A DNA stretch of 64,000 nt from Takakia lepidozioides (Eukaryota; Plantae; Bryophyta), in the NCBI GenBank assembly GCA_030704615.1, contig CM060733.1:26040001-26104000 (forward strand), given 5' to 3'. Both the position numbers and the translations under genes were made by a program. Under the pieces are notes generated by a model. It saw only the letters and a program-made list of their open reading frames with translations. It had not been told where the DNA came from and did not search any database. Shown here piece after piece: positions 6,790 to 30,352 of this stretch. Positions within the stretch are counted from its first letter, which is position 1, and the number at the start of each line of letters is the position of its first letter.

Positions 6790-7993
6790 AGCAGTGCATC
6801 ATGCACAATATGATTGGCAAGTGCATCATGCCCCTTTCTAGCATTCAAAATTGCCGTCAAAGTCTTGAATTGGCCAAGTACGGCCCCCTCATTAGGGTGA
6901 TCAAGTCTGTAGGTGCCTCGAAACTTGCAGAGATGGCATCAGCTCTGAGAGGGGCCAACCAAAACTATGGAAAAAAATCAAATGCCTAAAGGGCATTTGC
7001 CTGGTGCTTCATGCCCCTTTCTAGCAATCTAAAATGCCATCACACATCAGAATTGGCCCAGTACAGCCCCCAAGGTGTTCAAGCATGTAGGTACCTTAAA
7101 ACTTGCAGAAATGGAAGAGTCACTGAAGGGGCCATCCAAAACTACTAAAAAAATCGGATGCCTAAAAGGAATTGGCAGGTGCATCATGCCCCTTTCTAGC
7201 ATTCCAAATTGCCATCAAAGTCTTGAATTGGGCAAGTATAGCCCCCCCCATCAAGGTGTTCAAGCATGTAGGTACCTTAAAACTTGCAGAAATGGCAGAG
7301 TCACTGAAGGGGGACATCCAAAACTACTGAAAAAAATCAGATGCTTAAAAGGAATTGACAGGTGCATCATGCCCCTTTCTAGCATTCCAAATTGCCATCA
7401 AAGTCTTGAATTGGCCAAGTACAGCCCCCTCATCAGGGTGATCATTTGTAGGTGCCTCGAAACTTGCAGAGATGGCATCAGCTCTGAGAGGGGCCAACCA
7501 AAACTATTGAAAAAAATCAGATGCTTAAAAAGCATTGTCTGGTGCTTCATGCCCCTTCTAGAAATCTAAAATGCCATCATACATCAGAATTGGCCCAGTA
7601 TAGCCCCCCCCCATCAAGGTGTTCAAGCATGTAGGTACCTTAAAACTTGCAGAAATGGCAGAGTCACTGAAGGGGGCCATCCAAAACTACTAAAAAAATC
7701 GGATGCCTAAAAAGAATTGGCAAGTGCATCATGGCATTCCAAATTGCCATCACACATCAGAATTGGCCAAGTCACGTAGCCCCCCCATCAAGGTGTTCCA
7801 ACATGTAGGTATCTTCAAACTTGCAGAAATGGCGGAGTCACTGAAGGGGACCAACCACAACTATCGAAAAAATCAGATGCCTAAGAGGATTTTTCAGGTG
7901 CATTATGCCCCTTTTTAGCAATCCAAATTGCCATCAAAGTCTTGAATTGGCCAAGTACAGCCCCATCAAGGTGTTCAAGCATGTAGGTACCTT
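6790..7993. repeat. Tandem satellite, ~181-bp unit, ~6.5 copies
   Basis: The motif catcatgcccctttctagc...aaacttgcagaaatggc recurs at about 6825, 7008, 7184, 7366, 7546, 7728 and 7901. Confidence 0.95.
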
Positions 7994-8567
7994 CACTACA
8001 AGAGAAACTGGTTTTTTTTACACCCATTTTTACACCTGCAGGTATAAAAAAAGCCACCTGCTCACACCCCCCTGGGTGTAAGGTAAACCGTATTGATTCC
8101 GTCCCCCTGTAGAAAAAGCCAGTGGTGTCGAAAAAGCCATCTTACACCCATCTACACCCTGACGTGGCGCCCGGCCTATCTCGCTTTTTTGACATGATTT
8201 TCTTTACACCCGTTTTGACTGGCTTTTCTTCATCCATTTCGACTGGATTTTTTGACGGCTTATCTTACACCCTGCTTGACAATGTGGCGAATTCAAAATT
8301 CAAAATTCAAATTAAAAGTTTATAATTAAAAATTTATAATTAAAAATTTATAATTAAAATTTTGGCGGTTCAAAAATTCAAAAATTGAAATATGCGTTGA
8401 CCGTTGACCCCGCCCCATCCCAGGTCAATGGTTGATCGTACACCATCTAACACATTACTAGACAATACACACTTGAACCTAAGACCTCCTCATTATAACA
8501 TCACTAAGTCACTATACACGAACCAACATACCAATTACACATACATATACATTGTATATAAATATAA
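7994..8567 (+). mobile_element. CACTA (En/Spm) left terminus and subterminal region, truncated
   Basis: CACTACAAGAGAAA starts abruptly inside a satellite unit, followed by TTACACC subterminal repeats. No matching right TIR was found in the window. Confidence 0.65.
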
Positions 8568-8613
8568 CTAGGGCTTCGCGTTGCTCCGCACTACTAGCGA
8601 CGACTTCTGAGAA
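8568..8613 (-). mobile_element. HLE2 3' terminus (subTIR + GNA mini-hairpins + CTAG-TT)
   Basis: Minus strand reads GTCGTCGCTAG-TAGT-GCGGAGC-AAC-GCGAAGC-CCTAG|TT; 8566-8613 is 45/48 identical to 29539-29586. Confidence 0.75.
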
Positions 8614-8847
8614 GGACGTCCGGACGGATGGGCCATACTGGAGGAACTTGAGAGAGAGTTGGAGGTGTTTTCCATGGGTCGTCTTGGTGCAACAAGTAGA
8701 TTTGGACTATGATAAATCAGTATTTTTTTATTATTCGTTGTGAGCATGCATTGGAAAATATAGACTTTTTGAAAAGGAGAAGGAGGATGGTCTTTATAAA
8801 ATATGGTGGCCCTTACATGGAACGTTTAGAAGTGTCTAATTTAAGCT

Positions 8848-9582
8848 CTACCAAGCTATGCTTTTGCTCCAGTTGTCGTCGTTCGATTCTGTCTCTTCTG
8901 GTGCTTTGGCCAGCAGTTTGACCCCTTTTAATTGGAATGAAAGCCCGTGTTTCTTGTGACGGAAATTCATCCAATATCGGATGTTACACTTGATTGCAAC
9001 AAGATCCCCTGAACGTACGGATTGTCCATCCATTTTTTGGCCATTTTCGTTAAGGACTTCTATTGTATTGTACATCCCGTCATTGTTTGTTTTGTGACGT
9101 TTGTTGTTATTGGACGTCGATCGAGAGTTGTTTGTGTTGTTTTTTAGGAGCTTTTTCGTGAAGCTCATGTTGTTTTCACCCATCCACCTCATGTCCTCGC
9201 CTCTCCTCTTCCAATGATCGGACCATTCCGTTATTGTATTTGCGTAGTCGAACTGGAAATGGCTGTCTTCTATCAATAATGTGAATTTTGCGTCTTTTAG
9301 TTCTTCGGCGAAAGTCACGAATCTGTAATTCCCGGTTTTGCCAAGGTAGGGGAATTTTGCAATACCTACGAAGATTGCTATTTCTTCACGGTCCGAAGGG
9401 ACGTTCCACAAGGCGCTGTGGAAGTTTGTACTGTTGGGCAGGCGCTTCCACGTGTTCCCCACCTTAAGGGCATGATGGTCATTGGACGTGAAACTGTCGT
9501 ATATCACGTTTGTCATGTCTTGGTGGGTTATGTCTTTGTCTGTTACAGTGTCGATTGTGTCGGCTATTTCTGATGTTGACAT
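8848..9582 (-). CDS. Intronless 244-aa protein, putative T7 gp2.5/viral-type (OB-fold) single-stranded DNA-binding protein
   Basis: Uninterrupted ATG-to-stop ORF. The C-terminal pattern IEVLNENGQKM..VRSGDLVAIKCNIRYW...GLSFQLKGVKLL followed by an acidic tail ending in an aromatic residue resembles gp2.5/DUF2815-like SSBs. Its CpG-rich style is like the RepHel ORF. Confidence 0.6.
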   Translation of the reverse strand: MSTSEIADTIDTVTDKDITHQDMTNVIYDSFTSNDHHALKVGNTWKRLPNSTNFHSALWNVPSDREEIAIFVGIAKFPYLGKTGNYRFVTFAEELKDAKFTLLIEDSHFQFDYANTITEWSDHWKRRGEDMRWMGENNMSFTKKLLKNNTNNSRSTSNNNKRHKTNNDGMYNTIEVLNENGQKMDGQSVRSGDLVAIKCNIRYWMNFRHKKHGLSFQLKGVKLLAKAPEETESNDDNWSKSIAW

Positions 9583-9638
9583 GGTTGTTTGTATGTATGG
9601 TGTAGAGAGAGAGATAGAGAGGCGGGGGCAGATGAAAG

Positions 9639-9676
9639 TATATATCGGTGGATTTTTGAGGAGAATTAAACCCTAA
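9639..9676 (-). promoter_or_regulatory. Putative promoter of the 244-aa ORF: TATA box and telo-box
   Basis: TATATA ~57 bp upstream of the ATG, CT-rich leader, and AAACCCTAA at 9668-9676. Confidence 0.4.
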
Positions 9677-11459
9677 GAGTGCGACTGTAAAATTAATCAC
9701 GTTAATCTATAGAACTGTGGTTGTCTCTCTCAGATCGAGGTTGATGCTACACCGCTTTGTTGGGAAGTTAGGTGCAAAGTGCAATGCAACAATATGTTAT
9801 ATTTTTTTCTGCTCCACCTGCACTTGCAACAAGATGTCACTGTTAAACCTTATGGCTATATTTCTTTGCTTGTGTATTGTGTGTAATTCGGTAATTCTTT
9901 GGCTACCCAAAGACTGGATCTCACAACTGGCTTGTTTTGCAATTGCCCTTGGGAAATGACCATCTTAATTGCACATGTCACGTCACTTCAAACAATTATA
10001 TATTCAAGACTTCTAGTGCAGGGTTTGAGACTTACTGTCCAGTGGCATTAGGGCAAGCGACACTGTGAGCGAGAGAACCACGAAAGTAGTTAGATCAGCA
10101 GGTTGAATTGAACAACTTAGAGAGGAGTAGTGCTTAGGGCCCTGCCCACTTGCACTTTTCAGTTAGTGTCTGCAACAGTTAGTTAGTGTTCCAACTTACA
10201 GTTAAATGCATCCCCCCCACCAAAAAAAGAAGAAGCTTGCTTCAGGTTCGCTGAACTTAAATGTGATGATACCCGTTATCTTAAACTGTCTTCGACACAA
10301 AATCCGCCACCTGGCTAATCGGAAGTATCGAGTAGCCTCAAGTCTTGACTAAGTTTTGTAACTCACCAAGTTCCATCAAATCCAGCATTTTGAAGCAAAT
10401 TGTTCCACATACATGAGGGGAAATCTGCTATGGGCCTCGTTCAGTTGAAAGCTTCTACTTCCTCTTAATGTGGAAGTTGAGGACCTTTCATGGACTTCAT
10501 GCCGCAGATCTGGGAGGAGAGAATTTTTTGTCTCCTTTGGCAAACTCTATGTTCTTCCAAAAGCAGGGTCGACCAAACTCCCAAATAAAGCACACTAAGT
10601 AACTAGAAAACTGACCTGCCAAGGATAGAAACAAATTTGCAGTAATTTTCTTTCTATGAACTGGGAAGCAGGAAGGTAGCTTCAGAAAGCTCCAAGGTTC
10701 TCAGGTTCTCAGGTTCTCTTTGAAGCTTCTGAGAGGACGTAGATAAGAGGGACGAATCGCGTTTAAAGAGACGAGAGGTTTGCAAAGTGGAGTTTGAGGC
10801 CGATTGATAACAAATCAAGCAGTAGGATGCCCTGGCAGAGAACAGGTCTTGTTGGGTTTCACATCTGTCTCTGCATCCATAATCACTCCACCAATGCACC
10901 CTAACTTGGTTACAGCTTTTGGTGAACAATCGAGATCCTAAACCCACACTTAGACCAGTCTCTTGTTGGATATTGCTGAGACCTGCTGATGCAAATGTCC
11001 CACTACAATTTTTAAGCTAAGGCTCATACATTTGTAGCCAAGAAGTGCTTTCAAAGTGGAAGTGGAAGCACCAATTTTGGTTCTTATCTCACATGACAGT
11101 CGTCCTTTTGACAAGCAGCAACTACCCAGTCACAGCTACAAGGGAGCTAAGTGTTCATCCAGTGCTGTCAGAACCTAAAGTGATATGTGTGGTTTATAGC
11201 ATATCAAGATAGGAATAAAACCCAAAATAATGTGGACTTTAAGCCTATTAACTCCACATCTAGAACAGGAAACCCCGGTCAGTGCTGAGGACTCATAATC
11301 AAGACTCTGATGGTGTTGTTGTGACTGCCAGCCACAAGATGGAAAAGATGTTGTTTGAGAGAGAGAGAGGGGGAGAGAAAGCCAGAGAGGCCAAAATCAG
11401 GGTAGCTAAGAGGCACCTTCTACTTGATGATAATTCCCTCTTTTGACAGTGGCCTCATG

Positions 11460-12550
11460 ATGAGTTAACTTGTGTGTGGGGTGTCATCACTTTCGCCGGC
11501 TACTCAAAACAAATAGAGACACGGACTGGAGACAGGTGAGTGAGCTCACTAGATATAAGAGCCTTGGGTCTGGTCTTGAAGGGGAGCTTGTGCCGAATAA
11601 TGCCCACAACTTGCATTCCCACATTAACAGGAGCTGCCTTGACCGGTGAATCAAAGTCCATGACATGGGAGGGCTTCAGCTTTTTGAGAATCACTAGTGG
11701 CTTCTTCAGTGGAACTTTTGTGCCCTCCAGCTCATGGTAGCCAATGACAAATTTATATTTTTTCTGTGAGCAACAGTACATAATGCCTCAAAATACAGAA
11801 GTTTGCTCGAGCATTTCCCAGTTTCTTTCAAAGAATAATGTAGGCATGAAATTTCTGCTCCGAGTTTTTCAAGTCATTCATGTTTCCAAATGGCTAATAG
11901 ACAGATCTTTGTTATCAGGTACACAAGCTTCCACAAACTGCTTGGGCTGGTACATTTGGTTGCCAACCCTCATAACTGCTCACTAAGATTCTGCAGCCCC
12001 AGCTTTTGATGGCTGACCAAAGGAGCACTTTTAATGTGATAGAGGAATATGACTCTGAAATTTCTATTTCGAAAGCTCCAAATGTGGCAACTTCACACAA
12101 GTTATGCATCTGGAGAATTTACACCAGGGCTAAGTCCTCCCATTATTCTGTGATGAGAAATTTAAGAATGCTTTATGTATGTTATTAACTTTTCCACAAG
12201 CAAGTTAGGCCAAGGGACTGAACAGTACACCCATCTGCTGTGTCCAGCAAACCTGGATTAGATGCATCGAACCCTGGATATTGCATGAGCCACTAATGTA
12301 GCCAGGACACAGTCTAAAATCTTGGTGTCTCCTCGAGACAAACCATAGCATGGAGGCTCATTGTCAAAACTGATGTGAACACGTAGCGAAAATGAATAAA
12401 GAAAAAATGAAAGCATACCTCAGACGTAAAACACAGAGACCCGATGGTCAGATTGTGCGGGCTGGCAGCATGCTGGATTTCTAGAGAATCCTGGAGCTCC
12501 ACCATAGCCCACTCTTCACACTCTCCGCAGCCGCACTTCACCGGTATCTG
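11460..12550 (-). pseudogene. CTF8: Chromosome transmission fidelity protein 8 (Ctf18-RFC subunit), probably damaged copy
   Basis: Exon ~12550-12419 reads QIPVKCGCGECEEWAMVELQ...; exon 11763-11550 reads KKYKFVIGYHELEGTKVPLKKPLVIL...VVGIIRHKLPFKTRPKALIS. No in-frame ATG at the expected start (TGG), ELQG reads ELQD, and the last intron is very short. Confidence 0.8.
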
Positions 12551-13465
12551 CCACCTTTCCCATGGACTGCATAGGACATCAAGAGTCTTTTGACATGGTC
12601 AGGGTTGCTGAATACTAGAAGAAAAAACATCTGATTTGTGATGATTTCAATTGGTGAGAGTCACCAACTTGTGGACAGGAGGGATTGAGCAAACACAACA
12701 GGGAAGCATTTCCTGCAGAAACAAAAACCATTACCCTGTAGACTGAAAATGGTCCTTCACTACAGAAGATGGATTATCTGCCAGACTCTTTCTTCATTGT
12801 GACAAAGTGAACTCTGGAACCATCACCAGGCTTATTCTCATATCAATGTCATGAATAATAGGGAAATGGAATGAATCTAAGATTGAGATCCACAGACAGC
12901 AGCCTTAGTTACTGAGTAGGAAGAGAATGCATTAACCTTTCAGACAACTCATCTACATCCACCTAAAGTTGGCATGATCAAGAATGCTAGCTGCAACTAT
13001 TTTGCTGCTTATTGAACTCCTGACGTCTTCCTTCAAACAAACGGAGAGGAAACAGACTATCAAATAGACTGAAATGGGGAGGAGTCCATACTATATCCTC
13101 CTTGTGACCCTCAAGGCCTAGACTAGCCAAACTCGGTTTCCAAGCCAGGTTATTGCAGGCATGCAGCACTTACAAGCACTGCCCCTTGTTTCACAACAGA
13201 TGTTCTGACAAATTGTACTCAGTAGCATTTATCGTACAGGGATGCAAACAAACGCATATTGAGAGAGAGAACTCATCAAAACATAGTTTATGATAGCCTT
13301 GTGACCATAGACCTGCACCTAGTTTGCGTGGAACAAGAGGGAATGGATCACATTGTCTTTGTGAGGCTCAATCCTCTACTGGACTTACCTTGGTATAAAC
13401 AATTATTCAGGCTTTCCAGATGTCTTCTAGAAAACCCTTCACAAGGATCAATCTGCTGTGTGTGA

Positions 13466-13825
13466 CCTACCCAGCAATCTCCATGTGCGTTGACTACTCC
13501 ATCTCCCCACCTGTTTATTTCTCTCTCTCAAATCAATCTTTCTCTCCCACGCGTTTATTTCTCTCTCTCTCTCTGCGTTGACTAGTCCTCTTCCCCACTT
13601 GTTTACTTCTCTCTCTCTTTCCCTGTGTGTTCACTACTCTCTCTCTCCTTTTGCACATTCACTACTCCCACGCGAGCGTACCTACATAAATCAACTGTTT
13701 TTCTCTCTGCGTTCAAGGAATGACATCAAGGAGTGACGGTTTAAAGCAGTTCAAGAAGTTTTTAGACAGTTTAAGGAGTTCAAGAAGTTTTTATACAGTT
13801 CAAGGAGTTAGAGAAGTTATAGTTA
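13466..13825. repeat. CT-rich ~40-bp minisatellite followed by ~30-bp tandem repeat
   Basis: gcgttgactact/ctctccc..gtttatttctctctc units, then cagtt(c/t)aagragttcaagaagtt units. Confidence 0.6.
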
Positions 13826-14553
13826 TTGTTCTCATGGCAGATGACTGGTATAGGAACTCTGACCGGGAACTCCGATATTACCTCTTTTTTGTTTCAACTA
13901 AAATTAAATCCCTAGATATGATCACATCCCTCACACAGCCATAAACTACCGTACTTACCTAGCTTATTAGGCACTTCCACCAATAATAATTAATAAAAAT
14001 GGAATATTTTTAGGCAAATCCATTTTTATTATTTAGGCACATCGCCTAGGTTATTTCCAAATATAAGGCCCTTTGGATGTTGTGTGGACATGTAAAATGG
14101 TATGTTTTGTTTTCATTTATTTGGATTTTAAATAATATAATTTATGCATTGTTTCCACATATTTGGAAATTTTGGTATTTGTCAAATTTTTGGACTATTA
14201 GGCACTATTCAGGAAAATTTTCCAAGTTTTAGGCATATTTTTCAAAAATGCTCCAAATTTAATTGTGTACTTTGTTTAGGGTCACCTTTAAAATGAGGGC
14301 GAGGGAAGATCGGTAATAGTAATTCAATAATATATATTTTTAATTATTAAATATAGACGAGAGACAAAAATCTAAATCAATATTATTATGAAGTTTTAGT
14401 GAATTGAGACGTGTTTATCACTAAATTGAAGTGATATTTGGAAGTGATATTTGGAAGTGCTATTAACATTTAATACCCCCAGCCCAAAAAAAAAAAATGC
14501 ACCCAAAAAATCGAGAAATTCACTGAGGTGGAAAGATAAGAACAAATGTCACG

Positions 14554-17500
14554 TCATATCGGGTCTTCGTATTGTGAATGTTGTTTTGGAAATGGATCGA
14601 TTCTTCGATTGTTTATGCAATCTCTCAAGTGGGTTCTCATGGCGGATGTTGCGTATCGTGAATCTGCGATAATCCGAATGCTATATCCGTGGCATAAGCT
14701 ATCGTAAATACGCCACAGGATGAACTGTCACTTTGTTGCATGACATCTGCATAGAAATAATTGAATTGTGGGACTGGGATTATTTTTTGTAGATGTTGTT
14801 CTATTTCGCTCGGTAGCTTCTTATCCGCGGGCATGCTGGAATCAAACACCGTACATTGATGATTCGTTCCGTTCGGGTTTATCATGGTTAAAATCCAATG
14901 GTTGTTGTTCACGAACACGTGCTGCAGACATTTCTTGATGTATTTTGTTCTGCCCAATAGAGTCGAATACACATGTTGCTGGTAGTTTTGTGTTTCCAGT
15001 TCCTGATCAAATAGTATTTGCATCCCAGCCGCCAAATGCTGGTCACACAACCATCCGTTATCATCCAACAGGATTTGTTCGTCGTGCATCGTCAATATAA
15101 GATCTTCGTGCCAATATGTTTCTTGATGTATATGTGCGTGTTCTATGTTGGATTGTTTGTCTTCGGAGTCGATTTCTATGATTTCGACCGGTGTGGGAGA
15201 TAATTCTGAGCAAGTTTGGTTTTCATTTGGTTCTATTGGTGTGGGATGTTTGGCTTCAGAATCGTTTGTCACTTGTATTTTTTTGGACACATGTCTCGGT
15301 TGGATTGGATGTGGATGTGGATGTGGCGTTTTGATGGCAGGGTTGGTATTCACTGTGTTGATGTGTTCCGTGGTCTTGTATGATTTTTGTTCTTGGACAT
15401 TACAATCGGTTTGTGGAGTTATGAACTGCAGTGAGCCTGTCTTGAATTTGGCTGCTTGGATGTCTTCAAACTTGATGTCTCGAAGTATTATTAGCCCTTG
15501 TAGGGAACGCAAACGAGACAGTGTGACGTAGATATTGTGCATGTTCAACGGGTGTTCATCTGGTGGTTTTTGTAAGTCGATGACTATTCTGTCGAAAGTT
15601 TTGCCTTGACATTTGTAGTCGGTTAGGCAATAGGCGGGTATCAAAGGCAATTGGTGTCTGTTGATTTTGAATTTCTTTGGTTTTTTCTGTTCATCCTCCG
15701 TGTGGTGATAATCGAACGTTCTTGAAACGGGTGTAATCGGCACTACGTTTTCTGGAAGATTTTCTAAATTTACGTTGCTCAATGTTTGATGTTGACTGAT
15801 GAATTCGCTGAAGTCGATTAATACGTGATGTGGCGGGTGCATTAAGTTATCTTCCCGTACGATCCAATCGTCATCTGTTGTTGAGATCCCCACTATTTGT
15901 CCAACTGCACCGTTTACAAGCCCCAATCTAGGATACAAATTGTCGGTGAGCATGACTGTCATTCCTTTGTATAATCTCAAAAATGGAAGAAGATTGTGGC
16001 TTCTATTCTCGGGTACGGTCTGTCGGATTGTGAATTGGATCTCGTCGTGGAGTGCGTGCTTCTTGTAGGTGTCTGTCGCCACTATGGTGTAGGATGCGTG
16101 GTTAGATTTACGTGTGTAATATTCTATCATTTGGTGATTGATGGCGTTCTTTAACTGGTTACGAGGTACGATGTACGTTGCTTTATCCCAGGGTTCGTTG
16201 AGCGGGTTGACTTTCAGATTCGACATGAATCTTGTCTGTAATAATTTGAAATCCGTTTGGGTAAAGTTGTCTTCGCGTAGATTCTGTAGCAATTTTGCAT
16301 ATTGTACATCGTGGACTTGTCTCATTTGCTGGGTCAATATGATTGTGTTAGGGCGTATGTAATTTTCCCATAGGCTTTTGCCTATAATCTTTTTTTGTGT
16401 GTATTTTGTGAATGTGAATATGGGCTGTATGTTCGTTGAGTAGAGAGGCGCGTCGGTGACTGGTGGGAACTGCATGAAATCGCCCATGAACATTATGTTG
16501 AGTCCTCCGAATGGTAACATGTTTGATTTGAATTTTTGTAATTTCAGATGAATATCAGCGATCATGTTGCATCCGACCATAGATACTTCGTCTATAATCA
16601 AATAGTTAGTTCCCGACCATTCGTTTATGAAACTTTTTGTGTCGGATTCATTGATGCTCTGGCTGATTTTGAGTCCCAATAAAGTGTGGATGGTTGATCC
16701 CCCTATGAGGGTTGCGGCGTTGGCTGTGTAAGCACCGATTTTCAGGATTTTTGGTCTGTTGGTTTTATGAAGTACGTTTGCATTGCTTTAATTATTTCGG
16801 TCTTTCCCGTTCCGGCAGCACCTCCAACGTACATTAAAGTTTGTTTCCTTACATCGAGATGGTGATTTTGTGGGTCTATGAAACGTTCAAATGCTGATTC
16901 CTGCGAAGTGTTGAGCTTGTATTTTTTCATGACAAAATATTTAGCTATTTGATGTTGATCTGCATTGTGTACGATATCGGGATCTACATCGTAATTGTTG
17001 TCATCTGGGATGTCCATTGGTTTGTTTTTTGAAATCTCCCTTAATTCTGGATTTTTGTGGTGAAGTTTATCATTTTTAGATGACTGATTTGGATTTGCGA
17101 ACTCGTACAGTTCGTTGTCAATGCCAACGGGTGGATTTTTGGATTCGCGTAATGTTTTCAACCATTTATTGATCTGGGTTCTATTTGATTTTTTGGATGC
17201 AGTTTGGACCATTCCTATTTTTGGTGCGGTATGGGGTTGTGGTGATATTTTCCCGTTGGCATCTGTAACGAGCTTGTTGATAATTTCGGCCACGTAATTG
17301 TTTTCGCTTGTATTGCACATAAGATATTCGATTTGTAACTTCTGGCCATTTGTGACTATGTCTTCTGTATGTTTCGACGCTGAATTCTCGTCCACATATA
17401 TATCATCGTCATCGTCTCCGTGCATTTCGTCTGGCATCTCATTGTATAAGGGGTCGATGTTGATGTCTTCTGGGTTCTCGTCATCGTTTGGATTTTCGTT

Positions 17501-20500
17501 CTTCAGTAACAGTCTGTCGGAGTCTCGTGATTCTTTGCATTCATGTAGCATGCCGATATTTGCGATGATTTTGCTGTTGAATTCCGAACATATTGGATAT
17601 AATTCGTCGAGAGCGTCTTCCCAACTTTGTTGCGATCTTGGCTTTAAGTCGTGGATAGATCTCCATGGCATGAACAGAATACAAATAGCGCGAGCGTGCG
17701 TTGCCGCATCATTTTTTTTCGAAGGTATTTTGTAGCCTTGTATTATTGGCACTTTGGTTACTTGAGATTCATATACACTGTGGGTGTCACTTTGCGGATG
17801 TTCATGCATGAATTTGTAGTAGTACGGGCTTCTCACTTTGCACGATTTACTGCAGAACTCGTAAGGTGACATTTCCTTGAACTTGTGTGGCCTGCTTTGG
17901 TAGTCGATGCGAAAATTATACATAATCAACTTGTCGTTCTGTTTGGATCTTTCAACTTTGAATGTTTCGAAGGTGTTTTCGGGGTCGTTATCGTCAGGTG
18001 TGCTGTTCAGATCGTTGTTTCCATCTTTGTTCGATTGAGATTTTTCTTGTTCGCGAATCCATGCTGATAAACTATACCATGGCAAATATGCAAATTGGTG
18101 GTCTGTCAAATGGTCTGGATATTTCATAAGGTAACTGACTGCCCTTGTCGCCGAGATTTCTTGTTGCGATCCGATCGTGTTTAAACATCGAATTAGCAAT
18201 TTGCGGCTTTTCTCAACTGAATATTCGGAATATAGATCGTCATAAGTCGTTTTGATCTTTTTTACGGCTATTTGCAAAAGCGAATACATGTGTGATGTGT
18301 AGACGGAAGATTTTGTGATGTAATCCGTGATGTAGTATATTAGAGCCTTTGCGTCTTTCCCTGAAGCACCGATGAATTTCAAATCGTGGTTGCATCTTCC
18401 TGATACTAACATCCATATATTTGCGTTGTTCAACCATCTGTCGGTTCGTTTTATATGCAGCAGCCCGATTTCGTCGTCGAAATGCGTTTTTTCAACTAAG
18501 ACAGCGGGAAATCCGTATCTACAATTCTTTTTGAAAACGTCTTCGTTGGTTTTGTAACACGCAGGATTGCAGACGTGGCGATTGCATACATTCAGCAATT
18601 TTGAAACGTCGCGCGCAAAGTGAGCATAAAATTTTTTAGAGTGAACATCGGGAGATCTAGTAGTGCACGGATGGATTTCGGTGTTTACATTGTTTTCTTT
18701 GTTCTCGGAGTCAGTGGTATTGGTGGGTATATCGTCGTCGATTGGTATTTCGGATGTGAATTGGATCAAGTCGCGTACTATGATGTTGTCCAAATATGCC
18801 AGCATTTTTCGTTTGAATTCTTCGTCATCTTTTAGTTTTTGTACGAGGTCGTTTGGATTTGGGGCATTTTCTAGCCACAACAATGTGTGTATGTGAAGTG
18901 AACCATTTTTCGCGGTTTCATAACAACCGTAATATGCGTTTATGTTTCCAAGTACTCCTGTATTTGTTGTGGTAGTTTTGGCAGTCTCTCTGACACGGAG
19001 TAGGTATTTAAAAATTGCATTCACGATGATGTGTACAAATTTAGCTTGAGATCTCGGATTCGTAGTGGCAATTGCACGTCTTTCATTGTGGTCCGGGAGG
19101 TTGTCGTCGAAAAAAATGTCGAGATTGATGTCGTTCCCACTTAGTAGAGACACTAGAGGATGATGTACGAATGCTGGATTCAAAGTGAAGAATAAACTTG
19201 GTGTTCCCAACTGCTGCATCATGCTAAATATTTCGTTTCTCTGTGTTGCTCGACTGCTTCCAGATGCCATCACGTGTTTACTTGATACTTTCAAGTGTCG
19301 CAATAACTTTTGTATTTTCGGTTTGTTGTTTATTGATTTCACGTCGTCTATTATGTCGTTGAAGTCTTCTGAACGGATATTGTCAAGGAGTTGTGCTTCA
19401 CTTTGAAATGTCGATCTCGACACTGTCAATTTTGCGCCCAGGCATATTTGTCTACGTTGCATCAAATTGAACATGAAGAATGGAAACAAGTGGTGTTTCG
19501 AAAAGTCGTGATGGATATCGGTCAAACTCATCAAATACTCAACGTGGGCCTCCAAAGTTACTTTAATTGGACGGTTTTTCATTTCGGTTACGCCGATTCC
19601 AAACGGAAATAACGTTGGAAACATACACGCGATCAATTTTGGGTTTGCGTATTCGTTCACCATTTTGGTTTCATGCGTGTATGACAGATACATATTTTGT
19701 TGTAGTTGCAATCCATTTAAAGCGTTGGAGATTAGGTCGTTGTGCTTTATGTCAATTCCGTCAAAATCGATGAGTCCGGACGTGTCTATGACGGGCTGGA
19801 TCGTAGCGTCATTTTTGTTTATTGGTGTTTTTTGGTTGTGCAAATCCGTTATGTTGGTACGATGTTCAGCGTTGGCGAAGTCAATGTCCGTGGATTCAAA
19901 CACCGATCTCAAGATTGATGGTGGAATATCGTTCTCTGGTAGTCCATCCAATATGTCGTTATCAATTTGAATGTCTTTGTAACCCGTGTGATTATTTTTC
20001 AGCCATGTTAACCATGTCGTCACTGCAAGTCTACGTACGTATAGTAAATTACATGTTTTCACGACGTTAATGGGTGGATGTGAAGTGCCGACGAAGTGGA
20101 CGGCAACAATATCGGATAATGAATCTAAGGGTGGTGGCAATTTGTTTAGCAATTCGACCGCACGACCTGGATTTTGAGTAAAACTCACCAAATTTCCTCT
20201 CAATGCGCGTTGCCCCTTTCCGCCCTTATTTACATAACGTAATTTGAACAACATCACACGACAACGGTATCTTGCTATTAACGCTTCTTCAACCATGGTT
20301 AATTTTGGCAAAATGTCGTGAACTTTTCCAAACCACAAACCGTTAGCGAGTGCAAATTTTGGCATCTTGTTCTTTTTCAAGGTGGAACTGCAGTTTTTAC
20401 AAATGAAGATGGTGCGTGCATTATTTGATACTCCTCGTTTGTCCAATAACAACCCATTTAATTCGTCCAGCTGATGTTTTGTGTCATTGATCAATTCTTG

Positions 20501-21478
20501 GGGAACCTCTTGTAGGAGAATATGTTCTTCAAAGTGGTTTTCTACTTGTAAGCTGAGCCATTTCTTCATGTGTTTTAAGATCTCACTGTGTAATTCATCG
20601 ATTCTCCATTTCAACATGTTAGAGGTTACTATGTCTCTGCTGCAAACACAACAATATAGATTTGTGAAAGTCGCATTACTAATGTATTCGTTGAAGTTGG
20701 ATAAACAAAACAAGTTATTCTCCAGGCATATTTCTGGTGGGAACTCATGATCGTTCTTTGGTTTTTTTGCAAGAGTGCAATACATTTGTTCTCTTTTTCT
20801 TTTGAGTTTTTCCTTTTCTTCATTTTCGTGTGTAATATATTTCTGAATTTGTGCTGCACATATTTTATTTTTGATCAATGGATCTTGGTTTTTTTGGAAT
20901 GCATATTTTGCCCTTCGTTTCGCATTTGTTTCGTTTGGATCTATTTCCGTGGTTTGTGGTGGATTTTCGATTCTGAATTTTTGTCTACGTTTAGCATTTG
21001 TCTCGTCTGGATCTATTTCGGTGGTTTGTTGTGGATTTTCGATTCTGAATTTTTCCCTGCGTTTAGCATTTGTCTCGTCTGGATCTATTTCGGAGGTTTG
21101 TGGTGGATTTTCGATTCTGAAATTTTCCCTGCGTTTAGCATTTGTCTCGTCTGGATCTATTTCGGTCGTTTGTGGTGGATTTTCGATTCTGAATTTTTCC
21201 CTGCATTTAGCATTTGTCTCGTCTGGATCTATTTCGGAGGTTTGTGGTGGATTTTCGATTCTGAATTTTTCCCCGCGTTTAGCATTTGTCTCGTCTTGAT
21301 CTGTTTTGGTGGTTTGTGGTGGATGTTCCAGTTTGTATTTTTCCCTTCGTTTAGCATTTTTTACGTCTAAATCGAGAGTCGGTTGAGATTTACATTTTTT
21401 CCGTCGCTCATCATTTAATTTCTCTTTATTTAAAGCATACTTTGCCCGTCTCTTGGCATTAGCAATTTCTTTTTCCAT
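14554..21478 (-). CDS. Helentron/Helitron2-type RepHel polyprotein: N-terminal repeats, Cys-rich domain, HUH Rep, Pif1 helicase, Ulp1/C48-like cysteine protease; two frameshifts
   Basis: Rep motifs PSLFFTLNP, ETAKNGSLHIHTLLW and YYITDYITK; CKNC..KMPKFALANG. Pif1 motifs GAAGTGKT, AYTANAATLIGGSTIH (other frame), IIDEVSMV, GDFMQFPPV, LTQQMRQ, AYCLTDYKCQGKT and YVTLSR. Protease motifs HW..D..QQSDSSSCG. Frameshifts at ~16765 and ~14670. Confidence 0.93.
20900..21360 (-). repeat. 72-bp (24-aa) coding tandem repeat in the RepHel N-terminus, ~6 copies
   Basis: ETNAKRREKFRIENPPQTTEIDPD units. Confidence 0.95.
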
Positions 21479-22669
21479 TTTAACTTAGAACTATACACAT
21501 CTGAAAATATGAATTATAAATAAATAATTATATTGACGGTGGACATATTATTATTATTATTATTATATTTTGTTTTTCAGGATGAGGGGGATTGTAGCCC
21601 TGTAAATGTATTAAAAAGGGGATAACATTCGCGTTTTGATAAAATAAATAATAACTGTTCAGATTTATATAAAATTTTAATGAAAATAGTTGTTTTTGAT
21701 AAAACTCATCTCTTGATAAAAACAATTATCATTGTTAAAAATCCAGGTTGATAAAAACAAACGTTTTTGATAAAAATCATTTGTCTTGATAATGATGTTG
21801 ATATTGATATTGATAATGATAAAATTGATGATAAAATTGATATGATATTGATATTCATAATCAGTCTTCATACCTTCTTGCCCTGAATCATCACCCCACC
21901 CTAAAACCATAAGTTTGCAATCATGATACACAATCTCAGAAAATTCTAAAAAGTGTACTATTGTCACCGCTCAATTGTCTGAAAAGCTTGCAGACATTTA
22001 TGCGAGATCAGGAATGAGCTTTTAGGATAGTTTCGAGATCCTCTCATACGAAGATATGAGTTTGGTGCACTGTGAGAAATTTGGGCTGGCTGTGGACCCA
22101 CCAGTATCTCCCAATGAGTTTTCTTTTGGTGGTCCAACCGTCTATCTAGCAGACATGTCGGTAGAAGTAGAGCATGATGCAGCCAGAAGAATTTTCAAGA
22201 GGCAGTGGACAACCATGGCTATGGTAGGAGGCAAATGCTATGCTTTTGAGTTTTAGCTACTACTTGTTGGCCAGTAATCTAGGGGCTTGCTATGCAAGGA
22301 TTAGGTGTTGACCTAAGGGACCATAATCAATGAAATCTGACTGTACAACAAAGATATTTTCTCTTGCCGTAAATGCATAATAGAAAATGTACCTGGAAGC
22401 ATCATTCGATTAGGGACCCTCTCACAATCGGTTATTTTTTGGCAGCAACACCTAGTGAAGACGAAAGGCATAGTCCATTGATGTTTGATTCAAACCCAGC
22501 TATGCTGATTGAGGAATTCCAATAGGAGATGGCCCTTCATAAAACCAGGAAAATCCCACATCAGAACGTATAGGCTTACAAATACATACAGATCCATTTC
22601 CACTTTTTCAGTGCTCAAAGACTGGCACATGCATCAGAATACACATGAGGTTCACCTACCAGGCATAAT

Positions 22670-23880
22670 TCATTCACTCAACCAGTAACTTGCAGATTTC
22701 AATAAGAGGGGAAAACAGGGTGAAATGTTTTGAAGGCACTTCATCTGCCCAGACAATCTTCTCAGCTCAGCATGGATTTCCTTAATTCTGGGATGCCATC
22801 TACAGCGAAGGTGTGCACTTTTGTTGCAAATCTCAATGCAGCAGTGACCTACCTCCTTTCTAACCCTTCTGACCTTCATCATTCTTCTCACCAACTCCTG
22901 TTTTTGCGATGCAACCATGCACCCCTTCACTCATTTCCAAGGCTGCCAGGATTTGCACAAGCATTGCAAATGCACACAAACATGATGTGGCGAGGCTTCA
23001 CCCCTTCCCCCATAATTTGCTCATAGGTCTCCGAAACCTCCATCCCACGTCCTACCCTGCAAGCAACGCGTTCCACGACATCACATTTCATTCAGCATTA
23101 TAGTGGAACACTGCCTTCGCATCCTTGATGCTCCCACATTTGGCATACATCTCCACGAGGGCATTGTTAAGAATAACATTGGGTACAATTCCAGCTTTGA
23201 CGATGTCACCATGGACCTCTTTCCCCTTTTCCAGGGCTCCCAAGCTTGCACATACAAATTACGGTGATGTGGTTGGGCTTCACCCCTTCGCAGAATACAC
23301 ATAAGTTCCTTTGGTTTGCATCCTCAATGCACCCAAATTTGGCATACATGCCCACAAGGATATCGTACAGAATCACATCTGGTACAATTCCAGCTTTTGC
23401 GATACAACCACGCACCTCTTGCCCTTTTCCAGGGCTGCCAGGCTAACACAAGCATTGGAATCACAAACAAACGTGATGTGGTTGCCCTCACCCCTTTGCA
23501 CATCATTTGCTCATAGGTCTCCAAAGCCTCCATCCCGCGCCGCTGCTGTGCATACCCTACAAGCATCGCGTTGGGCAGTGTTCATAATGACATCTGGTAC
23601 AATTCCAGATTTGACGATGTCACCATGGGCCTCTTTCCCCTTTTCCAGGGCTGCCAGGCTAGCACACGCACTGCAAATGCAAACATACGTGCCTTTAGTT
23701 GACCATCTACCCATGCAGGTTACTTGTAGCTATTGATCCACAGAGAATCATAGGTAATCTGGAGCTTGAAGTCCGGTCCCCTTGGATGAATCTGGACCCA
23801 CACTCTATCCCTGCTCCTTCAACTATCCATGCCTCTGCACAAATCATGCATACATCCTTGCCTTGCTGCTAGCAGCTGAC
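22670..23880 (-). pseudogene. PLS-class PPR pseudogene (copy B) with E+/PG-box remnant
   Basis: Frameshifted PLS motifs; VRKEVGHCCIEI..HPRIKEIHAELRRLSGQMK; its 5' segment 23695-23735 matches 28880-28920 of copy A. Confidence 0.75.
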
Positions 23881-24403
23881 AATGACAGCCTGTGACAGGC
23901 TCAATAAACTCTGGAATAGAGCTCCAAAGCCTCCATCCCGCGCCCCTGCTGTGCATACCCCTGCAAGCATCGCGTTCCACGACACCACATCTCGTTCAGC
24001 CATAATGCTGAAATTAACTCCATTCGCATCCTTAATGCACCCACATTTGGCATACATGTCCACCAGGGCAGTGTTCAGGATGACATCTGGAACAATTCAA
24101 GCTTTGACGATGTCACCATGGACCTTTTTCCCCTTTTCCAGAGCTCCCAGGCTTTCACACGCATTGCAAACACAAACAAACGTGATGTTCTTGGTTTTCA
24201 CCCCTTCACACATCATTTGCTCATAGGTCTCCAAAGCCTCCATCCCGCACCCTTGCTGTGCATATCGTGCAATCATCACACTCCACGACACCACATCACG
24301 TTCAGCCATACTCCATTTGCATCCTCGATGCACCCACATCGCATACATGTCCACCAAGGCAGTGTTCAGGATGACATCTGGTACAATTCCAGCTTTGACG
24401 ATG

Positions 24404-27400
24404 CAATTCCCTTAATAAATTTGAAGAGAGCGTCTCTTTGGTAAGAGAACCCCGGACAGTGTATCAGAAAATGAATACTATCTTCAGATTGCCCACACAA
24501 CGGGCAATTGCACTCTCCCTTTCCTCTCTGCTTCAGTTTGCTGTTCAAAGGTAGGCTTCCTGCCCTGAGTTTAAATTTCAGTCTAGTGCCGAGAGTGGGT
24601 AGACCCTTGAGGTCATCCAAGATGTCCTCCCCCATGTCACAGACTGGAAACAAGTTCAGGGAAGTTTTCTGCCTAACTTCATTTTCATCAGACAATCTCA
24701 TGGCAACAGACATGGCTGAGGACACTACAGCCTCTAAGTCAGATTTATCCAGCAGGGTCAAGACTTGCGGATCCAAGTCCAGGTCCTTGAGGATCTCTTC
24801 TACTCTCTTCTGCCAGGACTTAGCCTGTTTGACAGGGCGGTCCTGTTTCCAAGATATAGAGTCGATTAACTTAGGATATCTGGTGTTGGGCATATGTTGC
24901 AGCTGACCCCACCATCTGACCTTGAATTCATCTTGTCGGGAGCTTAAGGACGGAATGCCAAACTCACCCCGAACAGCCACATTGGCTGTTTTGGAGCATG
25001 CTGACATACACTCCTTAAGCACCCCCACTTGAATGGATTCTAGAGACTTAGCCTGGTTGGAGTTATCAACCCATATAGCAGATCCGTACTCCAAGGCAGG
25101 TCTAATAACGCGACAAAGCATGGTTTTCTTAACCTCAGAGTTGACCCCTCTGCAGTGGAAAAATTTAGTGAGCCCCAGAGCTTTGCCCTTGCCAGTTTAA
25201 ACAACTTTCCGGATATGTGCATCCCATTACAATTGGAGGAGAACTCAACGCCCAGATAAGTGTAGGAAGGGAGGACCGGGATCTCTTGGCTACCCCACTG
25301 CCACTTAAGATCACTTCCTCCCTCTCCTCTGTCGTTGAATGCTACCACTGCACATTTGCTGACATTAGCCTCTAGCCCCCAAAGATCAAAGTATCTCTTC
25401 GCGCAATCAATCAACTCCTGGAGATTGGTTGGAGTCTCCCCTATGCCTGCGAAGTCATCCGCAAACATAAGAACTGGTATGGTGGTATCACCCACCCTTA
25501 ACCCAAATCCCTCACTTTCCACATCCTCGAGGAGTTGATTGATGAAAACATTGAAGAGCAGAGGGGACGGAGTACATCCTTGAGCTACACCTTGGTTGTC
25601 AAAGAAGTTGGACTTCTGTCCGTTAACAGTGACACAGCTTTTGGTGTGAGCATACAAGTTGCAGCACTCTTTATAGAGGGCTCGTCTCTCAGCTATCTTG
25701 AGTTTAATCTCATTGGTCCACCAATTAACTGCTCTACCGCAGACAATTAGTTTCCTCCCAATGATCTTGTCAGCCACGGAGGAAACGAAACTCTCCCAAG
25801 AGTCCACTGCTCTTTTGACTTCATTTCTTGCGTTAACAGAGCGTGACTGAAGTTCTTGGAGCGATTGGACAAAATGAGGGAGAGCCTCTTGCAAGGCCTG
25901 GACGTACTCAGCCTTGACCTCCTCATTGTGGAATTCTTCTATGCGCCACTTCCGAATCGAACGTTTCACAGATCTCTTGGTGGTGGGAAAACACCTTTTG
26001 ATCTCAGTCCAAACCAGGAAGTGGTCAGAGGTACCAATATCAGTTCTGTCGATCAACACATTGGCACACTGGGGGAACAAAATTTTGTCCATTATGATAT
26101 AGTCCACAATGGAATGTTCCCCAGTTTGGGATTTCTCACGAGTCCACTGCACTTGGTCACCACTTGTCCTGTTATTCAAGGTCAAAAGCTGAAGCTCTTC
26201 TAGACAGTTAATTAACCATCTGCCATTAGAATTCAGCTCGTCCTCACCAAAAGGTCCAATGATATCGTCCTGATGGATCCCTTTGCCCACCCAGGCATTG
26301 AAGTCCCCCAATAGTACCACCTGACCTTTGGCAAGGAACGAAGCACAGTCCAGCTTTACATCTTCGAAGGCCTTGTCTGCGTCAGCACTAAGGGTCCCCT
26401 CTGTGGGCATGTAAACACAACCAACAAAGAGGTCCTTTGTACTCATGCCGCCCTTCAAATTCAGTTTTAGCCAGATACTATGCTCGTACCTCAAACCCTT
26501 GTTGATAATTTCACAATTGTCAAACAAGAAATCACGGACAAAGAATCCGACCCCTTTTTGACCGCGTTTGGCAGAGGCTGCCTTGAGAGTACACATCTTA
26601 CCTGCCCATTTATAACCAATGACATCTCCAACCAGTTTATCCGACGTTTCCCATGTTTCTTGCCCAGCACAGATATGAATATCATTAGTCCGAAGAACTT
26701 GTCCCACTTCAAGTTGTTTCCTTTGGTTGGTCAACCCTGAGAAGTTGAAAGTGGCCAGCCGCAAGCCAGCCCTTTGCGTGTGAATTGTTTGTCGTCTAGG
26801 TAGCTTGTGATTGCTCCTGGACGGCCAACCGTTCTGCAAAGGGGGGACAGTTACCCCATGTGTAGATTTTGCTCGTCTTGTGTAAACTTTGAGAATTGGT
26901 AAACCATTCAGGGTACCAAATCTTTCAGTTACACGACGCACAGGCTCCGCACACATAGGGGCAGATTGTCCGTCAGACTGCTTGGGGACAATTACCCTGT
27001 GTATAGATTTTGCTCATCTTGTGTAGACTTTGAGGATTGGTAAACCATTCAGAGTACCAAATCCTTCAGTTACACGACGTTCAGGCTCTGCACACTTAGG
27101 GACAGACTGTCTATCTGACGGCTTGGGGACAATTACCCTGTGCATAGAATTTGTTCGTCTTGTGTAAACCTTGAGGATTGGTAAGCCATTCAGAGTACCA
27201 AATCCTTCAGATTCAGGACGTTCAGGTTCCGTACACTTAGGGGCATCTTGTCTTTCTGGCTGTTTGGATTCAACCTCATCCAGAGCATCAAACCGATTAG
27301 AAACTCTCAAGTTGAAGTTGTTGCCCTTGGTTGTCTTCCTAGAGCGCCCGTTTGAATCACCAATGTCTAAGACCGCTCTCCAGCCAGTCAAGGGACGAAC

Positions 27401-27632
27401 GTCTTTGAGATTGAATTGATGCGGGACTCTATTAGAAGCACTTTTGGTCATTGCAACCTTCAACGTACCCCTGTTATCAAGTCTCGAGATGGTACCATTA
27501 GCCATGAAATCCAAGCCTAAGCTAGAGCATGTAGTTTTAAAGGACACATCGTCCATCCTGGGATTCACCCCAAAAACTACACATGAAGCCCTAGATTTGG
27601 CATAAGCAACCAATTCCCAGGGATCACCCTGA
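24404..27632 (-). mobile_element. Non-LTR retrotransposon (APE + RT + C-terminal zinc knuckle; RTE/RTEX-like rather than L1), defective
   Basis: APE motifs ATFNFSGL, QETW, GDFNA, VDYI and SDH; RT motifs QGCTPSPLLF, FADD and YLG; CPLC..HFLIHC. In-frame TGA at 27014, a frameshift at ~25230, and the early RT subdomains are missing. Confidence 0.88.
26850..27250 (-). repeat. 141-bp (47-aa) tandem repeat, ~3 copies, in the LINE N-terminal region
   Basis: The FGTLNGLPILKVYTR-coding motif recurs at 26881, 27022 and 27163. Confidence 0.85.
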
Positions 27633-29510
27633 GGCATACATGTCCAGGAGGGTATTGTTCAGATTGACAGCTAGTACAATCCCAGCTTTGATGATGTCAC
27701 CATGGACCTTCCTACCCTTTTCCAGGGCTGCCAGGCCCGCACAAGCATTGCAAACACAAACAAATGTGACCCGGTTGGGCTTCACACCTTCCTGCATCAT
27801 TTGCTCATAAGTCTCCAAAGCCTCCATCCCACACCCATGCTGCACATATCCTGCAATCATCGAACTCCAGGACACTACATCTCGTTCAGCCATATTGTCA
27901 AACTCTCTCTTTGCACCTCTGATGGTGCTGCATTTGGCATACATGTCCACAAGGGTATTGTTCAGAATCAGATCTGGTACGATTCCAGCTTTGATGATGT
28001 CTTCATGGACCTCTTTGCCTTTTTCCAGGGCTGACAGGCTCGCGCATGCATTGCAAATGCAAGTGAATGTGACCCGGTTGGGCTTCACCCCTTCCTGCAT
28101 CATTTGCTCACAGGTCTCCAAAGCCTCCAACTCATATCCATGCTGGGCATATCCTGCAATCATTATATTCTAGGACACTACATCCCGTTCAGCCATATTC
28201 TCGAACACTCCCTTTGCATCTCCGATGCTGCCACATTTGGCATACATGTCCACGAGGGAAGTGTTCAGAATGACATCTGGTACAACTCCAGCTTTGATTA
28301 CATCACCATGGACCTTTGCCCTTTTCCAGGGCTGCCAGGCCCACACACGCATTGCAGACACACACAAATGTGATCCGATTGGGCTTCACTCCTTCCTGCA
28401 TCATTTGCTCATAGGTCTCCAAAGCCTCCATGCCACACCCATGCTGCACATATCCTGCAATCATCGAACTCCAGGACACTACATCTCGTTCAGCCATATT
28501 GTCAAACTCTCCCTTTGCACCTCTGATGGTGGTGTATGCTCCCGCATTAAACATACATGTTCACAAGGGTGTTCTGTAGAAAAACATTTGGTTTGAATCC
28601 ACTTTGGGTAATGTGAGAGTGCACCTGCTTTCCCATTTCCAGGCCTTTTATCTTGACGCACGCATGCAAGAGACAGACATAAGTATCTGTACCTGCTGAA
28701 ATGCTTCCTTGGTTCAAAATTTGAAGAGCCTCTTTCAGTTTCCCTGCCTCACATAGTGTCCTCATATACCTGGAATTTTCAGAAGAGGTCCTGTGGACTC
28801 CCTCTCTTGGTCCTCTTTTGGAGGCTGTGGTCATTGTGAGAGTGCCTGATTTTATCAATTGTGCCCCTACTGCTGCTTGCAGTTGACCATCTACTCATGC
28901 AGGTTTTTTGTAGCTATCAATAAGACGGCCTCCCAAAACCAAGAAGACCCTCCCAAGTACCTTGTAAACACCAAGAAAAACCCTTGCGCAATGCAATTTC
29001 ATGGCCTGTTTAGGAACAACAACCTATGATACAGACAGAGACAGCCACTTTTGCAGAACAGAAAACCTTTTTCACATCATGTAAGAAGAAAGAGAGGCGT
29101 CCTAGGGGTAAACCCTCTAAACCTTGATATGTAGGTTGTCCCACCATTGTGGAGGATAAATATGCTCACCTTTTTCCCTGGAATTCTCACTGGAGAACGC
29201 TCTCCTGGATGCGCCGTTTGAAGAAATGCCCTCCGCACAGTCGAGCTCTGCCAAACCTACCAGGCCTTATCAACCTATGTAGCCATTGCGCTCGCGCTCT
29301 CTCTCTCTCCTTTGAACATCAAACAGAAGCAGGGAGGAAAAGGGTCAGTCTCGACGAAGTACCGTTCAAGAAGTTATTTTCGGCTTTTTCGGGCAATCCG
29401 GGCAGATAGAAAGAAATTGACGACGTACGAAACGTGGCTACGACATGTGGCGACGACACGTGGCGACGATGATGTGGCACTATGGCACCCTATTCCTGCT
29501 CTACGCTAAA

Positions 29511-29586
29511 CTAGCTCTCGACCTTCGGTCGTCGCTAGAACTAGGGCTTCGCGTTGCTCTGCACTACTAGCAACGAATTCTGAGAA
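29511..29586 (-). mobile_element. HLE2 3'-end / TT / 5'-end junction
   Basis: Minus strand reads ...GCAGAGCAACGCGAAGCCCTAG|TT|CTAGCGACGACC-GAA-GGTCGAGAGCTAG. Confidence 0.75.
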
Positions 29587-30099
29587 CTATGTTCAATTTT
29601 TCACAAGAAAGGGGTGGGTCATCCCCACGATGTTACATGCAGAGATCCCGTGTTTTGTTTTTTTCTAGAAGAAAAATGACGGATCTACATTTCAACATTT
29701 AATTTTCACAAGCCGCATCAATCAATAACAACATACCCAAATACCCTTACATTCATTATATGAACTTTCACGCATCCACCATGGGATTGGATCTTGGTGG
29801 GTTAAGGCTAGCTTTTGACAATATTCATGCAAGTTCATCAAGGGCTCCATCCAAAGCCACACTACAAGAAACAAACGAACATGTCCAAATTTAAGATGCT
29901 GAACAAACTTGTGCATAGGGCTGCCCCTCTCATCAAGCTCATTAAAATTCGTATTCACTTTCATCTTCAAGCTTTGGAAAAGCTCCACCACCCAAACCCA
30001 GAATTAGGACATCACCAGAATCAGTAAAAAATCATCCCTTCAGTCAAGTGCAATTGTGGGCTGACTTAGGCGGGATGATACTGCAAAGGTGAGAATAAT

Positions 30100-30352
30100 G
30101 ATGAGGTCAGAGGGGTTAGAAAGGAGCCAGATCACAAGTTGCATCCCAAAATTAAGGAAATCCATGCTGAGCTGAGAAGATTGTCTGGGCAGATGAAGGA
30201 GGCGGGGTATGTGCCTGACACACGTTTTTTACTTCATGATGTGGAGGAAAGGAATTTTCTCTTTGCCACCACAGTGAGAAGCTGGCCATTGGTTTTGGGC
30301 TGATCAACACAACTCATCAAGAATCTTCGAGTGTGTGGAGACTACCACACCT
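30100..30352 (+). pseudogene. PPR DYW-domain remnant
   Basis: HPKIKEIHAELRRLSGQMKEAGYVPDTRFLLHDVEE..HHSEKLAIGFGL..KNLRVCGDYH, with frameshifts. Confidence 0.8.

Follow-up and report, generated by a model that had tools for sequence, protein, structure and literature searches.

This locus raises the question of whether the 21 kb between positions 8568 and 29538 of the window (the whole 64-kb stretch of DNA that was analysed) is one rolling-circle transposon, of which class it is, and which of its genes belong to the transposon itself. In our reading, the interval is quite probably one copy of an HLE2 element that contains a frameshifted RepHel-C48, decayed host DNA (CTF8, PPR and a 3' UTR) and an intact accessory gene, designated here ORF244, that travels with RepHel and whose product is likely to bind single-stranded DNA. 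The anatomy could be read directly, i.e., the ends, the domains, the frameshift, the multi-copy status, the linkage of the accessory gene with RepHel elsewhere and the decay of the cargo, and the features are listed in Table 1.

Table 1. Features of the element and its neighbour, in window coordinates (strand: "." where none is assigned)
Feature	Position	Strand	Remarks
Whole element	8568..29538		genes on the minus strand; 5' end at 29538, 3' end at 8568; ~21 kb
3' terminus	8568..8613	-	46 bp, CTAG then TT; loose ends at 8566 and 8613 in X2; homologous ends in L001-L006
3' subterminal copy of the 11-bp repeat	8594..8604	-	
ORF244	8848..9582	-	intact, 244 aa; element-borne accessory gene, possibly gp2.5-like SSB; ~110-140x single-copy depth
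Captured CTF8 copy, introns kept	10083..12544	-	coding exons 12544-12419, 11763-11550 and 10870 into the 3' UTR; Pfam Ctf8 E 1.5e-6
Captured 3' end of another host transcript	12802..13181	-	X6 record 21 and X7 record 26 match, then unlike beyond 13181
High-copy internal non-coding block	13202..14309	.	summed depth 4355-6447 vs ~60; 13202-13755 ~107 units
RepHel C-half	14637..16787	-	Pif1 helicase, C-terminal Peptidase_C48; His/Asp/Cys motifs at 630, 649 and 691 of the frame
RepHel N-half	16742..21478	-	72-bp repeats, DUF6570, Helitron_like_N, HUH (LHIH, residue 864), YxxxY-type motif (1051-1058), Walker A (1555)
Internal block	22392..22736	.	other copies have direct joints from here to 9803 (ORF244 side) and 28841 (5'-end side)
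Decayed PPR cargo	22739..28894	-	303-bp repeats, stops, frameshifts; ends at E+ motif, no DYW
LINE retrotransposon (endonuclease, RT, zinc finger)	24403..27658	-	inserted in the PPR cargo; very high summed depth
13-bp tandem repeat	29427..29478	.	just within the 5' end
5' terminus	29511..29538	-	11-bp repeat is one hairpin arm, cap CCGAAGG; TT precedes
3' end of abundant sister element	29541..~29700	-	head-to-tail, 2 nt (TT) upstream of the 5' end

The two ends are marked by an exact 11-bp inverted repeat, found at 8594-8604 on the plus strand and at 29528-29538 on the minus strand, as the preliminary description had said, and the window contains no other copy with up to one mismatch. The repeat is asymmetric, the inner copy being inset 26 bp from the 3' end. 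From the base composition, about 0.02 copies of the 11-mer are predicted, a figure that was obtained post hoc. TT was found at both ends, and the PPR, RepHel, CTF8 and ORF244 sequences are all on the minus strand, so that these earlier statements also stand. The 3' boundary was confirmed independently by the public sequencing contigs of run X2, and more strongly than by the post hoc expectation for the 11-mer: in 32 contigs with unlike flanks (agreement 0.42), the alignment continues through the TT to 8566 and diverges beyond it. A further 49 X2 contigs depart at 8613. The two departure points indicate that the terminal 46 bp form a mobile end that a commoner sister family also has. Variable flanks at the 5' end did not appear among the 24 loose ends listed out of about 7,300. 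Hairpins had been described at both ends. The 5' hairpin (29511-29538) was borne out, with its left arm formed by the TIR, a CC-GAA-GG cap, a folding energy of -7.7 kcal/mol and a z score of -2.9, equalled by 2 of 200 shuffled sequences, but the 3' hairpin was not, because its stem is 3 bp and its z scores were 0.06 and 0.70, with 98 and 148 of 200 shuffles folding equally well. The ends can also be read as TC...CTAG, and the base flanking the 5' end is T. The 5' boundary may take in one T at 29539.

The ORFs at 21478-16742 and 16787-14637 constitute a single RepHel that is interrupted by a one-base frameshift near 16762, and four X2 contigs have one extra base at this site. In the Pfam analysis, DUF6570 (E 3.9e-39), Helitron_like_N, PIF1, Pif1_2B and Peptidase_C48 were detected, and Exo_endo_phos was absent from both RepHel frames. 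DUF6570, which is a marker of HLE2 (PMC11417382), was present in all nine RepHel homologs returned. Helraiser, an HLE1 element, matched the window RepHel weakly and in the helicase half only. The preliminary description had assigned the element to the Helentron/Helitron2 type, and the Helitron2 part of this assignment is supported by DUF6570, the TIR and TT. The Helentron part was not upheld, because RepHel is without an endonuclease; the element is therefore Helitron2-type and not a strict Helentron. The EN-RT sequence at 25040-27013 is not a part of RepHel and belongs to the LINE within the cargo. Membership of HLE1, which has TC...CTRR ends, a site between A and T, a 3' hairpin and no TIR, was rejected, since a TIR and DUF6570 are present and the base of the 5' flank is T. 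These results support the classification as HLE2 (Helitron2-type) with a RepHel-C48. The surprise that the preliminary description had implied for such an element in a plant is outdated, since the HLE survey records HLE2 from 13 species of land plants, among them mosses, a lycophyte and onion, and gives Peptidase_C48, RPA and Ssb-like_OB among the captured domains of HLEs (PMC11417382). The class of element, its presence in plants, and C48 and SSB-type passengers are already published.

What is new here is a conserved, unannotated second gene, which appears from the sequence comparisons to be tied to RepHel in two lineages. No Pfam family matched ORF244 above the cut-off, and neither RPA nor PF21473 (Ssb-like_OB) was matched at E<=0.1 by ORF244 or at E<=0.5 by three homologs. 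A full HMMER scan with ORF244 returned 30 homologs, mostly fragments, and a profile search returned 43 proteins, four of them already among the earlier homologs. The homologs that have a record are generically named or unnamed and derive from metagenome assemblies; none was found in viral contigs and phage records. The nearest Atlas clusters are unnamed and mainly basidiomycete. In the metagenome scan, which covered 23 of 64 parts, at least seven ORF244 loci were confirmed among 596 pattern stretches. In six of the seven loci fetched (L001-L006), the ORF244 homolog precedes the first RepHel match by 0.4-0.95 kb on the same strand, and the seventh is on a 1.3-kb contig, too short to show RepHel. 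The RepHel of the six loci is ~45-60% identical to that of the window in the conserved parts, the C48 end included, and is followed by a homologous 3' terminus. The presence of RepHel and a homologous 3' end beside the homologs in six of the seven loci indicates that ORF244 is part of the element's own kit and not host cargo. The gene order in these loci, ORF then RepHel, is the reverse of that in the window; the accessory genes there are broken, and a search of these loci revealed no convincing 5' TIR. L001 and L002 are 99.8% alike and the other loci 78-88%. The linkage of ORF244 with RepHel thus rests on two lineages, i.e., six loci of one decayed family, plus the window. In RNA-type contigs, RepHel is barely covered and ORF244 partly, and this coverage has no bearing on expression.

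A two-gene module, composed of RepHel and a viral-type SSB, had been proposed for this locus. The 244-aa gene does belong to the module of the element, but its identity as an SSB is weakly indicated by PHROG and hhalign comparisons. Among 38,880 PHROG families, the best match of ORF244 was PHROG 112, the gp2.5-like SSBs, with a borderline E value of 0.0039, and 3 of 42 members of the ORF244 family matched PHROG 112 at E<=0.1. The hhalign comparison with a profile of 21 gp2.5 sequences, built for this analysis, gave 52 collinear columns with a score of 23 (P 0.014, probability 3%), which was higher than those of 100 of 100 column shuffles and of the reversed alignment; this test was picked after the PHROG 112 match and is not independent of it. 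With single gp2.5 sequences, the hhalign probability was ~0.3%. The match spans residues 173-225 of ORF244, in which W204 is aligned with Y158 of T7 gp2.5, a residue that we take to contact ssDNA, but residues 1-170 have no gp2.5 match. SSBs of the gp2.5/Enc34 type have an acidic C-terminal tail with a terminal aromatic residue. ORF244 ends in W; its tail, with a net charge of -2 in the final 25 residues, is only mildly acidic, and the homologs do not conserve it. The structural model of ORF244 (pLDDT 57, pTM 0.37) is confident for residues 171-225 only, which are modelled as strand-turn-strand-strand; fold searches with this low-confidence model, in which an OB fold would have been the expected match, gave no significant hit.

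Judged from these comparisons, the ORF244 protein is slightly more likely than not to bind ssDNA, and an ancestry of the gp2.5 type is possible at rather less than even odds. With the same reserve, we propose tentatively that an HLE2 clade of land plants (and perhaps of fungi) has a dedicated second gene for replication, which encodes an ssDNA-binding/annealing protein of the T7 gp2.5 type. Helitrons would then have a third type of SSB besides RPA and Ssb-like_OB, which would have come down from their proposed plasmid/phage ancestors or been captured from a virus, and which would have been amplified on RepHel-less derivatives. No paper that joins a Helitron with gp2.5, DUF2815 or Enc34 was found in the open-access literature. 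The rival that survives best, to which we give not quite an even chance, is that ORF244 encodes an accessory protein with a different role in the Helitron, such as a host-silencing suppressor or a RepHel partner, with the element otherwise as described. The likeness to gp2.5 would then be a chance match of beta-strands, as the borderline best hit out of so many families, the low hhalign probabilities, the unmatched N-terminal part and the tail that is mildly acidic and not kept in homologs would suggest. Against chance are the collinearity of the 52 columns with W204 on Y158 and the strand-turn-strand-strand of precisely the confidently modelled part, together with the RPA or Ssb-like OB genes described in such a role in other Helitrons (PMC11417382; PMC4683698).

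The choice between these readings matters for what the locus can tell. HLE2 elements in plants were recognised recently and their accessory genes are nearly unstudied, so ORF244 offers a concrete target. If it encodes a gp2.5-type SSB, it would bear on the question of whether Helitrons are of prokaryotic origin, a descent from prokaryotic plasmids having been argued for (PMC8788227), on the protection of the displaced strand and on the capture of host DNA; the annealing activity of such a protein could promote internal gene capture. If ORF244 is not an SSB, what remains is an HLE2 with cargo, well formed but of an expected kind.

The element was compared with known systems. Like HLE2/Helitron2 (PMC11417382; PMC5148889), it has an asymmetric TIR with an inset 3' copy, a TT target and a DUF6570 RepHel without EN. 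The core CCGAAGG of the 5'-end hairpin is shared with FoHeli1/2 of Fusarium, and the head-to-tail insertion 2 bp from another copy with FoHeli4 (PMC5148889). It differs from HLE2 in its length of 21 kb, the large host cargo, the fusion of C48 to the C-end of the helicase, an accessory gene without a Pfam match to RPA or Ssb-like_OB, the ends readable as TC...CTAG and the lack of a significant 3' stem-loop, although a 3' stem-loop is missing also in some HLE2, e.g., FoHeli3-5 (PMC5148889). With Helentron/DINE-1 (PMC4067079), it shares subTIRs that are 11 bp or longer, an inverted repeat lying inside the subTIR at the 5' end, a preference for TT, tandem repeats in the interior and many deletion derivatives, but its RepHel is without a fused AP endonuclease, and no OTU and no RPA were detected. 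A putative ssDNA-binding accessory gene that is retained in RepHel-less elements is also known from Mothra and RPA-encoding plant HLE1 (PMC4683698); in the rice Mothra mother element, the RPA gene is kept and RepHel is gone (PMC4683698). Those are, however, HLE1 with RPA homologs from flowering plants, whereas the present case is an HLE2 with an unrelated gene. The cap genes of Pleurotus HELPO1 (PMC4289320), compared by description only, are likewise uncharacterised Helitron-borne genes that occur with RepHel across basidiomycetes; the mainly basidiomycete Atlas clusters nearest to ORF244 call them to mind and may point to a relationship.

The copy number along the element was estimated from summed contig depth in units of the single-copy depth of X2, which is 60 from a 4.6-kb unique contig identical to the window; such sums approximate the true copy number only roughly, and the window may itself derive from X1/X2. 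The values were ~15 units for the 5'-proximal block, ~17-34 for RepHel, ~110-140 for ORF244 and ~3-5 for CTF8 (about 6 when summed at one site), so that by read depth ORF244 is about fivefold commoner than RepHel. The segment 21512-22065, between RepHel and the 22.4-22.7 kb block, has ~6.5 copies. The high-copy non-coding block downstream of RepHel has a splice-donor-like site near 13390 and is a possible promoter or first exon. In other copies, 28841 is joined to 22734/22736 at a depth of ~15-26 units, with a short side of only 23-31 letters, and 22392 is joined to 9803 in one X2, one X6 and one X7 contig, the last extending 106 letters to one side of the joint and 199 to the other. From these joints, other copies would run from the 5' block through the 22.7-22.4 kb block to ORF244 and the 3' end without PPR, RepHel and CTF8, which supports the pairing of the termini and a variable internal content. 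It is likely that RepHel-less derivatives that keep ORF244 outnumber the autonomous copies.

The depth data bear also on a second rival, which we regard as improbable, namely that the span is a composite and the 21 kb were never mobile as a unit. It would consist either of a shorter autonomous element (~22.4 kb to 8568) with a separate 5' non-autonomous PPR piece, or of a RepHel/CTF8 block in a small ORF244 element. The depth does vary ~100-fold along the span and falls at 21512-22065, self-insertion does occur here, as seen in the head-to-tail arrangement with the sister element, and no sequencing contig spans the whole element or reveals an empty site. Nevertheless, the window holds only a single 5' TIR, with a single subTIR to match it at the 3' end, self-BLAST detected no internal terminus, and the joints of other copies keep the order of 5' block, 22.4-22.7 kb block and ORF244/3' block. 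One large rolling-circle element, as originally proposed, is supported by the paired ends, the joints and the ORF244-RepHel linkage. Since the family looks recent, with near-identical copies, a one-base RepHel lesion and contigs without this lesion, there may be copies that are still intact and could serve in the first transposition assay of a plant HLE2.

The cargo had been described as whole intron-containing host genes, and this applies to the exon-intron layout of CTF8, but the CTF8 copy lacks a start codon in frame where one is expected and the PPR block is fragmentary, being one or more broken pseudogenes that are truncated and interrupted by the LINE. The GT-AG introns of CTF8 are spliced out in RNA-type contigs from two studies (X6 and X7), and the copy differs by ~1-2% from these spliced transcript contigs. 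It encodes Asp at 12488-12489, a codon that specifies Gly in RNA and DNA contigs. The retained introns, the low divergence, the lost start and the Gly-to-Asp change suggest that CTF8 was captured recently at the DNA level and is now decaying. That CTF8 is a resident host gene near which transposon pieces fell is very improbable: its complete layout and closeness to the spliced transcripts would fit a resident gene, but its ~4-6 copies by depth, its lost start, its Asp residue and its position wedged between ORF244 and RepHel would not.

By analogy with known HLEs, transposition would begin with a nick by RepHel at the 5' hairpin/TIR; the helicase would then peel off a single strand as far as the 3' subTIR-CTAG, for insertion at TT, here directly behind the 3' end of the sister element. 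The ORF244 protein may coat the displaced strand, like the role proposed for RPA in other Helitrons. Cargo would enter at internal positions and vary between copies, and the present copy would presumably move with RepHel supplied in trans.

The 3' end of the sister element is 92% identical over 51 bp to 8563-8613, with differences at 3 of the 46 terminal bases, and its inner flank agrees with the consensus of the loose ends at 8613. The depth of 37151 at 29630 (~600 units) indicates that the sister element is abundant; its 5' end was not found in the 64-kb window. The copy at 29541 was also considered as an over-run from a circular intermediate of the same element, and this was rejected because of these terminal differences and the inner flank, which is that of a separate sister family. 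A 58-bp inverted match between 22739-22796 and 30141-30198 was examined for a special link and dismissed, as both are PPR E+ motifs, which belong to a huge family. The host is a land plant whose PPR family is very large, and it may be a non-seed plant. The left flank, previously taken for a CACTA element, contains a relic of a hAT transposase (Dimer_Tnp_hAT, E 1.6e-10).

The gene order of the element differs from that of its relatives. In the six related, decayed HLE2 copies from metagenomes (L001-L006), the accessory gene comes first and is followed by RepHel-C48, whereas in the window element RepHel is followed by the cargo and then by the accessory gene. The 3' ends also differ, being CCAAG in L001-L006 and CCTAG here.

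The features within and around the element are listed below.

Repeats and genes in and beside the element (window coordinates)
Feature	Position	Strand	Remark
hAT transposase	3800-8000	-	decayed
180-bp tandem array	6813-7993		inside decayed hAT region
72-bp repeats (n=6)	20905-21359	-	encode 24-aa repeat at RepHel N-terminus
LINE	24403-27658	-	141-bp repeats near its 5' part
Sister HLE2 family, 3' end	29541-29700	-	head-to-tail with the element, TT at contact
PPR E+/DYW pseudogene fragment	30080-30350	+	outside the element
Spliced gene	34174-38417	+	single-copy
64-bp and 93-bp unit arrays	62290-63910		palindromic core in each unit

The LINE within the cargo reached a summed depth of ~0.2-1.0 million, as compared with 60 for unique DNA, and it is therefore a dominant repeat of the Takakia lepidozioides genome. 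On the left, the flank at 8000-8560 is repeated ~25-fold in the DNA contigs (X2), and therefore, empty sites should exist.

The sister HLE2 family at the 5' end is very abundant, at ~600 depth units (summed contig depth, a rough copy estimate), and no 5' end of it was found within the 64-kb window. A 5'-proximal stretch of the element (29260-29481) matched at ~87-88% inside two ~1150-nt contigs guessed to be RNA (X6, X7), the rest of which was unlike the window.

Unique DNA begins at 30646. From their translations, we take the spliced gene to resemble a cation/H+ exchanger, and a gene at 53581-54936 (+) presumably resembles a P450 of the sterol C22 desaturase type. The arrays near the right edge are likely subterminal repeats of a different DNA transposon.
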